Positions 1-3,000 of a DNA stretch of 64,000 bases are shown here, in pieces (position 1 is the stretch's first letter; the number at the start of each line of letters is the position of its first letter). The position numbers and the translations under genes were made by a program. The notes beneath the pieces were generated by a model, which was not told the origin of the DNA, ran no database searches, and was given only the letters and a program-made list of their open reading frames with translations. Origin of the DNA: Schmidtea polychroa (taxonomy: Eukaryota); contig CM097885.1 in NCBI GenBank assembly GCA_044892525.1, positions 145,452,001 through 145,516,000 on the forward strand, in the 5' to 3' direction.

Positions 1-3000
1 TCATAACCAGTTGCGTTATATTTTGGCATTCGTTTTTTATATTGACCAATGACGTTATACACCAAATATGCTAATCCCACTAAATATCGATTTTGGTCTT
101 CTGATCTGCTTAACAGATGTTCCACAATTAATCTGAGTTCCACGGGATCCTTTAACGTTAATCGAATTTTATTATCCATGATTTTCATTATTATCGGTTT
201 CAATACCGCCCATAATTGTTTGGCTTCGGTCGGGATATTATCCTTCCTCATTACTCTTTTCACATCTGGATTTGCTAACGCTAACATGTTAGCTAATAAG
301 TCGTTTATCCATCGTGTCCCTTGTTCCCGGACGTTTGTTTTCACTTTGACTTGTTTTACTAGTGCGCTTAGTTTATCCATTTTAGTTTTTATCTGTTCCA
401 TTTGTGCTTGAATTTTGGATTTTGGTTCCACCTCTGCTTTATCTGTTTTTGGTCTTCCTCTTGTTCGTCGATCCATAGCCGTTCCGGTTTCTTTCCGTTT
501 TGGCGGATTGTAAGTTGTATCTTTTGACGTGGTCGCTCCTGGATCTACTCTCCAGTTACTCCATTCATCGGTTGTGGTTACATCTTTATTGGCACTTCCT
601 CCCACATTATCTAAATCCGTCTCGGCTTCTGTCGTTTCCACTGGTTGTCTTTGCGCACATCCAAATCCATCTAGATCATCAGTTGTTGGTTCACCTTCGT
701 CGATAAATAGGTCTCCCGATTGCGATGCTCTCATAATCTCGCCTGCTTCGACTATCTCCTGTAGTTCATCTAGTATTTCGTCTTCTCCCGTTGTTTCGAT
801 CGTTACTTCACAAACCGCATTTGGAACTTCTGGTGTGTCCAAACTTCCTGGTTGTTGAGTGGATGATTTTTGCTTTATCTCTCTTCTCCTTAATTCTCTA
901 CCTGCAATTTTACTCACAGTTAATCTGTTCACAATTTCTCCTTGGAGTGGTGTCACACCAATTTCAATATCGTCGTCTAATGATCGTCCCTCGTGTTGTA
1001 AGTGGAATGGGAGTTCATAAGGTATTCTCTTTTTAACTTCCCTGACCTTGGCTGTTGTGTAGAATTCCTTTTCCATTGGTTCAAAATCTGGCAAGAATAT
1101 TTTTAGTTGATATTTCTCGGGTGAGTTTTCGGCCCACTCTTGTTGTTTCCATTTCCGGATGATTTCACCAAATTGTTCAGGGTACCATACGTATACCCGT
1201 CGATATTCTTCGATCGCTTTAACGATTTTTCGTAGGTTTTGAATCCTTTTGCATGATTCGGCTATCCATTTTGCTAGTTCTACTACCGCTCGTCGACGAT
1301 TTTTCGCACCGTTTTGTAATATCTCCATCAATTCCTTACATTTTTGTGCTTCCAACAATGTTGCTGCTTCCTCCTCATCTGCGTCGGCGTCTATTGGTAG
1401 ATGTCCTGAATCAGGCACCCTTCTCCTCATCATACAGATTCTCGGTTGATTTTCTGGTATGTTCAGTCGTTGGTTCATTTCTTGTTCTGTTTCAACTTCT
1501 ACTCTGATCTGGATCGCATTGTCTTTCACAAATATTGATTGTTCATTCTCAATGTAATTTAGACGTATTAATTTAGACGTCCCAGAAGCGATATATTCTA
1601 ATGTTGTTGGTCGTTGGTAGCAGGTGCTTCTTGGGTCTGGTTTCATTGTTTCTTTATGTACGTTAAGGCTATCTTTCAGTGGTTCGATCGCTATCGTTAC
1701 CTTTCTGCTAAACGGCCATGGTACCTTATCGTCATAATTCCCTTTGCAGATGATGAAGAATGCCGACACATAACTTCCTTTTCCTACCCCATCTCCGTTC
1801 GGGTATATTCGCAATTTCATCTTGTACTCACCTAATCCTGAGTAGACCGGTGGACTTACTAATCGTGTGATTTTCTCTTCCCTTGCTGATTTTATCTTTT
1901 CCATCCAATTCTCAATTTTCCACGTGAATGGTGCTAACCTTACCGGTTCTCGTATCTCCTCATCTTCTCCTGATTGTAACTCATTTTGGAATTCTTGTGG
2001 TAATATATCCTGGTAAGCATCGATTGGTTTCTCTCTTACCCATACTGCTGCGATCTCTTCGGGTATATTATCTATCCAATTTGGTTCCAACTTTTGCTGC
2101 TCCCAATCCCATCGAGCTTCACTTTCGATCCACACTTTTTTCCATGGTATCAGTTTGCAATCTTCGTCATTGAAGGCTGCTAGTTTTAGTTTATCATCCT
2201 TTAGCCAATGGTTATAAATATCTATTATTCGATCCATCTTTGCTCTCATCCCCCATTGGAATCTTTTAATTTGTTGCTCTGTTTTGGTGGCGTTTTTGTG
2301 TCCACCCGATGGTTCATCCATCGCGATTATATTGATGACGGCTCCATCTTCCCAGATTCCTAGTTCGTAAATTACAGTTCGGTCTCCTCTTTCTAACATG
2401 TGCCGGTTGTACATTATTATCACATCTTCGATCATTCCATCCTCACTATTTTCTCGAGCTTTTTGGATGATTTCTCGATCTATGATTTGCACTAACTCGT
2501 CAACTTCGCAATCGGGATTAACTTCTATTATTTGTTTCTCTTCATTTGGTAACTTCACCTTTATTTTTATCGTTTCTTGTTCGCATTTTGTTCTCTCGTA
2601 TTCTCCGTATTTTGATATCAACTCTGTTGCTCGTTTATCTTCGAATCTCATAATTTCCGTGTCTCGTACGTCTTTGACAAATTGTTTCATTAGTTGTGGC
2701 CATCTTTCTCTGAGTCTATTAATATATTTTCTTGCCTGATCGATAGCTTGTTTGACCAAGATTATTTGGTTTTCTTTCATTATTTTTCGTTCGATCTTTT
2801 CCAATTCTGGCTCCACTTCATTGTTAAACACTTGTTGGATTTTCTGGAACATTTCTGCCACTGATTCGTCGTCTCTGGTTTTCTCTAAGGTTAAGATGTT
2901 AGTTTCGTTTGGCCATATCATCGCATCTACCAAATGTATGCCTATTTTAACTTTGTAACCATCGACATATAATTGTTTATTTTTATGGCTCGTTCCCATT

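Follow-up and report, generated by a model that had tools for sequence, protein, structure and literature searches.

A TRAF-type MATH domain in the polyprotein of giant planarian Burro-type retroelements that also carry a free TRAF gene

Two nested giant retroelements and their relatives

The window (the whole stretch of DNA analysed here, 64,000 nucleotides) contains copies of two giant LTR retroelements, A and B, in opposite orientations, with A sitting in the gag region of B, at window 9027-10959 and L033:5808, and flanked by a GTCG target-site duplication. This copy of A spans about 32 kb and leaves the window at its edge. Its ORF1 frame, of 2548 aa, is broken downstream of a MATH domain, and its 5' LTR is about 3 kb shorter than its 4.9-kb 3' LTR, which lies outside the window. 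The features of A in the window are as follows.

3..5468, minus strand: 5' part of element A ORF1 (Gag-accessory-Env-Pol polyprotein), leaving the window at the edge
765..1337, minus strand: block downstream of the MATH insert, common to B (45% over 191 aa, E 4e-44)
1494..1928, minus strand: TRAF-type MATH domain (TRAF-C) in frame in ORF1, aa 1181-1325 (Pfam)
2106..2399, minus strand: block upstream of the MATH insert, common to B (29% over 100 aa, E 3e-10)
4179..4379, minus strand: nucleocapsid with three CCHC zinc knuckles (zf-CCHC E 5e-11; three motifs visible in the translation)
4560..5099, minus strand: Gag capsid domain (Pfam Retrotrans_gag E 3e-7, Ty3_capsid E 8e-7)
9001..9018, minus strand: probable primer-binding site, 8 nt inside the 5' LTR end
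9027..10959, minus strand: 5' LTR, TG...CA, 99.2-99.7% identical to the A 3' LTR

The primer-binding site presumably resembles tRNA-Pro. Other LTR fragments of A type are found at about 43330-43760, 54805-56260 and 59369-60813. Upstream of ORF1, both families have a 160-170-aa leader ORF that ends in an IAP-type RING (L034:7281-7760, L039:6926-7405, L094:4025-4519); the window copy of A has it in broken form.

Element B resumes where A ends, with the following features.

10960..22428, plus strand: B polyprotein region after the A insertion (sequence and Pfam)
12291..12845, plus strand: B empty site, with an acidic spacer linking the two shared blocks (alignment)
22986..24422, plus strand: B free TRAF gene, RING-ZnF-coiled-coil-MATH, 478 aa, ATG at 23034
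27362..41467, plus strand: B 3' LTR, matched part, 98-99% identical to the B 5' LTR in L033

The polyprotein region of B, disrupted by frameshifts, stops and an internal deletion, comprises the gag remainder, the shared blocks without a MATH domain, a weak BCL2-like region, Env, PR, RT-RNase H-IN and ankyrin. The BCL2-like match was found in B only and is below cut-off (Bcl-2 E 0.0014). A hydrophobic stretch that follows it (13488-14420, plus strand) resembles an Env signal peptide, so that BCL2 tail anchor and Env signal may perhaps be one segment. In the free TRAF gene, Pfam recognises RING (E 2e-4) and MATH (E 2.6e-25, at about 23979-24383). Family B has at least 150 copies among the matches listed for its TRAF, and the B copies that were read showed no BIR ORF.

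The 3' LTR of B is interrupted by a 1.9-kb insert and by a 10.2-kb element (29824-40024) with 1.1-kb terminal inverted repeats (98%), which we take to be Polinton/adintovirus-like. In the latter, fragments of PolB accompany an ORF with a RING, a motif like endonuclease VII and an ORF of 427 aa that has no Pfam match; a relative of it (87-95%) is found in L102, where it directly follows the 3' LTR of a different B-type copy. In A and B alike, the LTR includes an open frame (160-250 aa) in which a related, coiled-coil-like segment contains WFSP and for which Pfam gives no match (9441-9950, minus; 40186-40941, plus; 55141-55650, minus). Elsewhere in the window, a small cysteine-rich ORF resembling a secreted protein with a signal peptide (46413-46817, minus strand) has a chi-conotoxin Pfam match below cut-off (E 4.5e-4), probably a chance cysteine match. 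Broken ORFs at 50462-52024 (plus strand) look by eye like the C-terminal restriction-like endonuclease of non-LTR retrotransposons, with no Pfam match.

More complete copies of A elsewhere in the genome span 35.2 kb (L034-L037), with LTR pairs of 4.8-4.9 kb that are 99.1% and 99.96% identical and 4-bp target duplications in both copies inspected (n=2). Among 150 A matches listed, the ORF1 frame is 4,791 aa in 19 and at least 4,700 aa in 31. Its order, from the overlapping loci L040/L041, is Gag, MATH, Env (Monjiviricetes fusion), PR, RT, RNase H, IN and ankyrin. Behind it lie a small ORF, the genes for a 487-aa TRAF and a BIR-RING protein, and ORFs with coiled coils; family A thus has the MATH, the BIR and the ankyrin that mark Burro cargo. 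Of three further Burro traits, a BCL2-like motif ahead of Env, a ubiquitin-like domain behind MATH and a dUTPase-like domain, Pfam finds none above cut-off in family A, though a weak ubiquitin-like match (OTU1_UBXL, E 0.009) lies just upstream of the ORF1 MATH. A and B are sister families, 79% identical across RT-RNase H-IN. Contigs from three runs, which are only guessed to be RNA and demonstrate neither expression nor splicing, cover parts of the window.

We conclude that A and B are two high-copy, Burro-type, giant env-bearing Ty3/Gypsy families of a planarian-type genome, an assignment made by architecture, with likeness to the named elements Burro1-4 / GYPSM1 judged from their description. 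In the passages on Burro1/GYPSM1 of Schmidtea mediterranea in the review by Arkhipova & Yushenova 2019 (PMC6431247), whose account draws on Jurka 2007 and Grohme et al. 2018, a MATH_TRAF_C domain lies in a 4,873-aa ORF1 and Env is in frame between Gag and Pol. Like A, that element exceeds 30 kb and has a BIR; its internal region measures about 25 kb and its single ORF1 about 4,800-4,900 aa, with 4,800-5,100 aa given for Burro elements in general. The reported order, Gag (three CCHC)-MATH-BCL2-like-Env-PR-RT-RNase H-IN-ankyrin, also matches A, in which the BCL2-like domain is unconfirmed by Pfam. A Burro-like element of Dugesia tigrina resembles B instead, having an ORF1 without MATH and a separate accessory MATH ORF (PMC6431247); that ORF is called upstream, whereas B has its complete RING-ZnF-coiled-coil-MATH gene on the downstream side of ORF1. 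The review concludes that what is an accessory ORF in one element may in another be a subdomain of the polyprotein, in substance the heading of an earlier reading made from the sequence alone. The polyprotein-MATH arrangement is thus already published for planarian Burro, and A and B are fresh members rather than a new system. What they add is that a single element has a MATH in its polyprotein as well as a free TRAF gene, that the two probably arose from one source, and that their grooves met opposite fates. The Burro1 description in PMC6431247 mentions neither a second full-length TRAF gene nor MATH origin or groove divergence, and our literature search on Burro TRAFs returned nothing besides this review; Jurka 2007 and Grohme 2018 may show a 3' TRAF. 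No passage on Burro or TRAF appears in the portions consulted of an errantivirus survey in eLife (PMC13524379).

The MATH domain of ORF1 and its receptor groove

The ORF1 MATH domain of A scores E 1.1e-26 against MATH_2 and E 1.6e-23 against TRAF-mep_MATH, and its PDB sequence matches are TRAF3, TRAF5 and TRAF2 (E 6e-29 to 1e-23). An alignment-based AlphaFold (AF2) model, with block-mean pLDDT of 87-98, superposes on TRAF2 at 0.9 Å rmsd over 146-148 columns (0.9-1.1 Å for TRAF2 and TRAF3 together), and the domain accordingly has the anti-parallel beta-sandwich fold of the TRAF2/3/5 TRAF-C. A single-sequence AlphaFold model (pLDDT 32) was uninformative, and a three-copy complex prediction scored 0.00, which counts neither for nor against. 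Both Pfam and the alignment thus confirm what had been read from the sequence alone, namely a MATH domain within ORF1 of A and a free RING-ZnF-CC-MATH gene in B.

That reading had also placed the domain inside Gag, between two blocks that are adjacent in B. The domain does share one frame with Gag, but it begins about 750 aa downstream of the zinc knuckles and belongs to the accessory portion of the Gag-Env-Pol polyprotein, so that the placement was a loose one. The flanking blocks are homologous between the families (29% and 45%), although in B they are not strictly adjacent, being separated by an acidic spacer of about 55 aa. The distance between the two anchors is 351 aa in A, 355 aa in the database protein P0019 and 180 aa in 3/3 aligned B-type rows, making the MATH of A a net 171-aa insert relative to B, and no MATH was found in 8/8 B-family 5' halves. 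P0019, which carries no element name and is 49% identical to A ORF1, has an equivalently placed MATH of about 50% identity. It was the only match for the insert region in our homologue searches (the A 3' TRAF had 2), so that the cross-species sample consists of one protein.

The motifs YKMKxxIYPNGDG and CYQRP, noted earlier as shared, do occur in both the ORF1 MATH of A and the MATH of B, which are 36% identical over 157 aa; CYQRP does not by itself link the two, since CYQ[RK]P-like sequences are found in host planarian TRAFs. A third codon pattern for YPNGDG, considered as a possible third architecture, was traced to a subfamily of B whose 3' TRAF is 70% identical.

A copy-specific secondary insertion is excluded, and the MATH is a stable feature of family A. 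At least 150 copies have it, all 150 matches listed (of 1540 candidates) are 91-100% identical, both flanks are in place at 29 of 30 fetched loci, and 144 of the 150 have no stop inside the domain, while 6 do. Between A subfamilies, dN/dS is 0.17 and 0.23 (based on two pairs that each differ by about 15 synonymous changes), and the ORF1 MATH is therefore under purifying selection at a dN/dS of about 0.2. Capsid, Env and PR have values of 0-0.07 and the neighbouring accessory regions upstream 0.08-0.18, placing MATH among the faster-evolving parts of ORF1.

Unlike TRAF2/3/5 and planarian TRAF2-like proteins, the ORF1 MATH is without TRAF-N, RING or zinc fingers and is embedded in a retroelement polyprotein. 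No proline-free 28-residue window, as sought for a coiled coil, occurs within the preceding 80 aa, and AF2 places a low-confidence linker before the domain and a confident helix about 90 aa upstream; on one crude heptad measure both 3' TRAFs and the host TRAF locus L064 score 1.6-1.8. The classic dominant-negative TRAF is RING-less but keeps the coiled coil (TRAF-N plus TRAF-C). The sequence-only reading had described the ORF1 MATH in those terms; it is indeed RING-less, but because no TRAF-N coiled coil adjoins it, the description was overstated.

The receptor hot spots of TRAF2, of the TRAF1/2/3/5 type, are defined in passages of PMC6125299. With TRAF2 numbering provisionally transferred by motif equivalence, equivalents of R393, Y395, D399, F410, S453 and S467 are present in 30/30 ORF1 MATH copies, and the serine triad reads S-T/A-C, as in planarian host TRAFs, with T at the C469 equivalent. 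The polar-pocket R/Y/D and the S-[AT]-C-Y serine finger are likewise common to the ORF1 MATH and planarian TRAF2-like proteins (D. japonica TRAF2-like A, ADF47429.1). At 13 groove positions, the match to host L064 is 10/13 for the ORF1 MATH of L040, 8/13 for that of the window copy, 7/13 for the B TRAF and 2/13 for the A 3' TRAF, the alignment of which is gapped at the groove. Judged by these residues, the ORF1 MATH keeps a predicted host-like groove and A's own 3' TRAF has largely lost its own, which suggests that receptor-type binding within A may have passed over to the ORF1 copy. Pfam gives no RING call for the A 3' TRAF, and the RING-like regions of both element TRAFs (L041:6989-7220; window 23120-23240) and of host L064 have Cys in place of the C3HC4 His (CGC).

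The 3' TRAF of A and the origin of the ORF1 MATH

A 3' TRAF gene, sought in full-length A copies at the suggestion of the sequence-only reading, was found in 31/31 of the long-ORF copies among the matches listed. For 27 of these, ORF1 was paired by position with a 3' TRAF 11-14 kb downstream, partners being picked from the match lists; the other 4 were fetched and all have the gene, open in 1 and broken or shortened in 3. The A-type 3' TRAF has at least 150 copies in the genome, including a broken one in the window copy of A itself (L032). The 3' TRAFs of A and B occupy the same position and are 30-33% identical across most of their length.

Pairwise identity and phylogeny point in different directions on where the ORF1 MATH came from. 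By identity it is closest to a host gene (41% to L064, the MATH of which is 87% identical to a named Dugesia japonica TRAF2-like protein and marks the host as planarian-type), with 29-37% to the two 3' TRAFs. In three trees (42, 37 and 39 rows), all element MATHs group together at 91/85, 91/85 and 91/86, a clade that is never starred (bootstrap below 95) and that joins long branches. Within it, the two 3' TRAFs are sisters at 89-92/68-75 in all three trees and the ORF1 MATH branches deeper. Two residues also set the element MATHs apart. A Pro three residues before the first Trp is present in 57/57 element rows, 0/26 host loci and 1/111 database TRAFs, and a Lys replacing the usual Cys in 47/47 element rows, 0/28 host loci and 0/87 database TRAFs; these are counts of scorable rows, with non-matching patterns omitted, and the element rows are mostly near-copies representing about four independent lineages for two characters. 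The three host genes added to the 39-row tree are also without both residues. A recent duplication from A's own 3' TRAF was considered and is disfavoured, the two being only 29-31% identical, although AU testing does not reject them as sisters (p 0.21).

The sequence-only reading had offered a choice between two captures and a relocation of TRAF into the polyprotein. We favour a course missing from that choice, in which one ancient TRAF capture would have been followed by duplication of the MATH within the element into ORF1. The strongest competitor, which we regard as rather unlikely, is that a host TRAF mRNA (TRAF2-like or P0067-type) entered ORF1 independently by template switching, the function being the same as in the favoured account. 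Both the top identity and the best groove match of the ORF1 MATH are to the host loci L064/L065, and AU tests do not reject its placement with host TRAF2-like genes (p 0.065 and p 0.107) or with the second, P0067-type host lineage (p 0.231). When the 3' TRAFs are removed, moreover, the ORF1 MATH joins that divergent P0067 lineage at 92/87. On the other hand, such placements lower the log-likelihood relative to the free tree by 15-16 (TRAF2-like) and 7.8 (P0067 lineage), host TRAF2-like genes group apart from the ORF1 MATH (90/87, 94/88), and the two residues common to all element MATHs are absent from the host loci. The tree of MATH domains with host TRAFs that had been proposed earlier thus recovers an element-wide grouping at about 91/86, but as an unstarred clade that AU tests allow to be broken.

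TRAF-like genes are also carried by iridoviruses (Q4KS49, A0A8F9RTS3; fold matches at E 1e-14 to 2e-14) and giant viruses, which thereby resemble A and B as mobile elements with a captured TRAF/MATH; they differ in being DNA viruses with stand-alone genes at 18-19% identity, and a shared origin is not implied.

Proposed role, alternatives and wider meaning

Two candidate protease sites, chosen by motif recurrence, bracket the MATH region of ORF1.

2325..2342, minus strand: weaker candidate site, upstream of the MATH product: INIIAM, with IRIIPM in B
1428..1442, minus strand: candidate site downstream of MATH, RICMM

In both families, motifs of the RI-x-(M/L)-M type recur in ORF1, among other places directly ahead of PR and at the junction of RNase H with IN. 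We propose that a single planarian TRAF gene was taken up by the common ancestor of A and B and became a free 3' ORF, still present in each family, and that on the way to A its MATH, without the rest of the gene, was copied into ORF1, landing between two accessory blocks downstream of Gag. The element protease would cut ORF1 at the RI-x-(M/L)-M-like sites, freeing a cytosolic product of about 295 aa made up of the helical block common to B, the linker and MATH. This product, without a RING or an adjacent coiled coil but with a host-like peptide groove, could bind partners of host TRAF2-like proteins and, as a competitor or adaptor, damp death or stress signalling in cells expressing the element, beside its BIR-RING (IAP), BCL2-like, ankyrin and TRAF products. 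Such a role in host TRAF signalling is the most likely one for the ORF1 MATH, and it is consistent with the IAP, BCL2-like and ankyrin cargo. In passages of PMC6125299, TRAF function relies on a trimer formed by the TRAF-N coiled coil and TRAF-C; with no coiled coil before the ORF1 MATH, avidity would have to come from elsewhere. For this account as a whole, from single capture through MATH duplication to a released, groove-bearing product that damps host signalling, we put the probability at roughly 0.6.

The product might instead serve the element's own life cycle as a scaffold for assembly, trafficking or ubiquitin control, perhaps packaged with Gag. As part of a single ORF, MATH is predicted to be made 1:1 with Gag, and both the weak OTU1_UBXL match upstream of it and the ubiquitin-like domain reported downstream of MATH in the passages on Burro in PMC6431247 would suit such a role. 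We consider it unlikely nonetheless, since at least 150 family B copies do without an ORF1 MATH, the groove resembles that of the host, and the IAP and BCL2-like cargo indicate host death pathways.

More doubtful is the proposal that the ORF1 MATH is ancestral and was lost in B, or that it is a tolerated passenger kept open only by the downstream Env and Pol. Its branching below the split of the A and B 3' TRAFs fits an old duplication with loss in B, and preservation of the frame would by itself account for the scarcity of stops. A mere passenger is, however, hard to reconcile with a dN/dS of about 0.2 and the retained groove residues, and ancestry with the D. tigrina Burro ORF1, which according to PMC6431247 is also without MATH and so favours a gain; AU tests, besides, equally permit a later duplication from the 3' TRAF of A or of B (p 0.21, 0.26). 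Relocation of the TRAF gene from the 3' region into the polyprotein of A would explain a MATH in A ORF1 and none at B's equivalent site, but has next to no probability because A retains its 487-aa 3' TRAF at B's position.

Returning to the favoured account of capture and duplication, one can speculate further that A encodes a split TRAF system, in which a lone groove-keeping MATH released by the protease, a groove-decayed full-length RING TRAF and a BIR-RING IAP together might rewire TRAF-cIAP death signalling in planarian cells, and that element copies, hundreds of them open in each genome, may be a sizeable, unrecognised part of the MATH transcripts counted as TRAF expansion; we consider this rather unlikely. 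YPNGDG-coding matches number 582 in the genome and 1 in the control, and element-borne TRAF/MATH sequences number in the hundreds. Passages of PMC8532177 report both expression of BURRO1 in S. mediterranea and its silencing by PIWI. Expression of the sequences described here, if it occurs, could partly confound counts of planarian TRAFs as well as data from RNAi and on stress responses, and would make a retrotransposon-encoded anti-death toolkit open to direct assay. A planarian TRAF/MATH expansion, with 121 domains in PMC6109357, is described in passages of that paper and of PMC7586133 that draw no link to Burro. The elements cannot account for that entire expansion, since a separate, host-only expansion of MATH exists (21 rows, 100/99), with many exons of about 190-200 aa and variable groove residues, at G000:C2 around 1-5 Mb and 105-124 Mb. 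An intronless host cluster of four TRAFs akin to Dendrocoelum TRAF-2, at G000:C4:28.37-28.40 Mb, belongs to the divergent host lineage.
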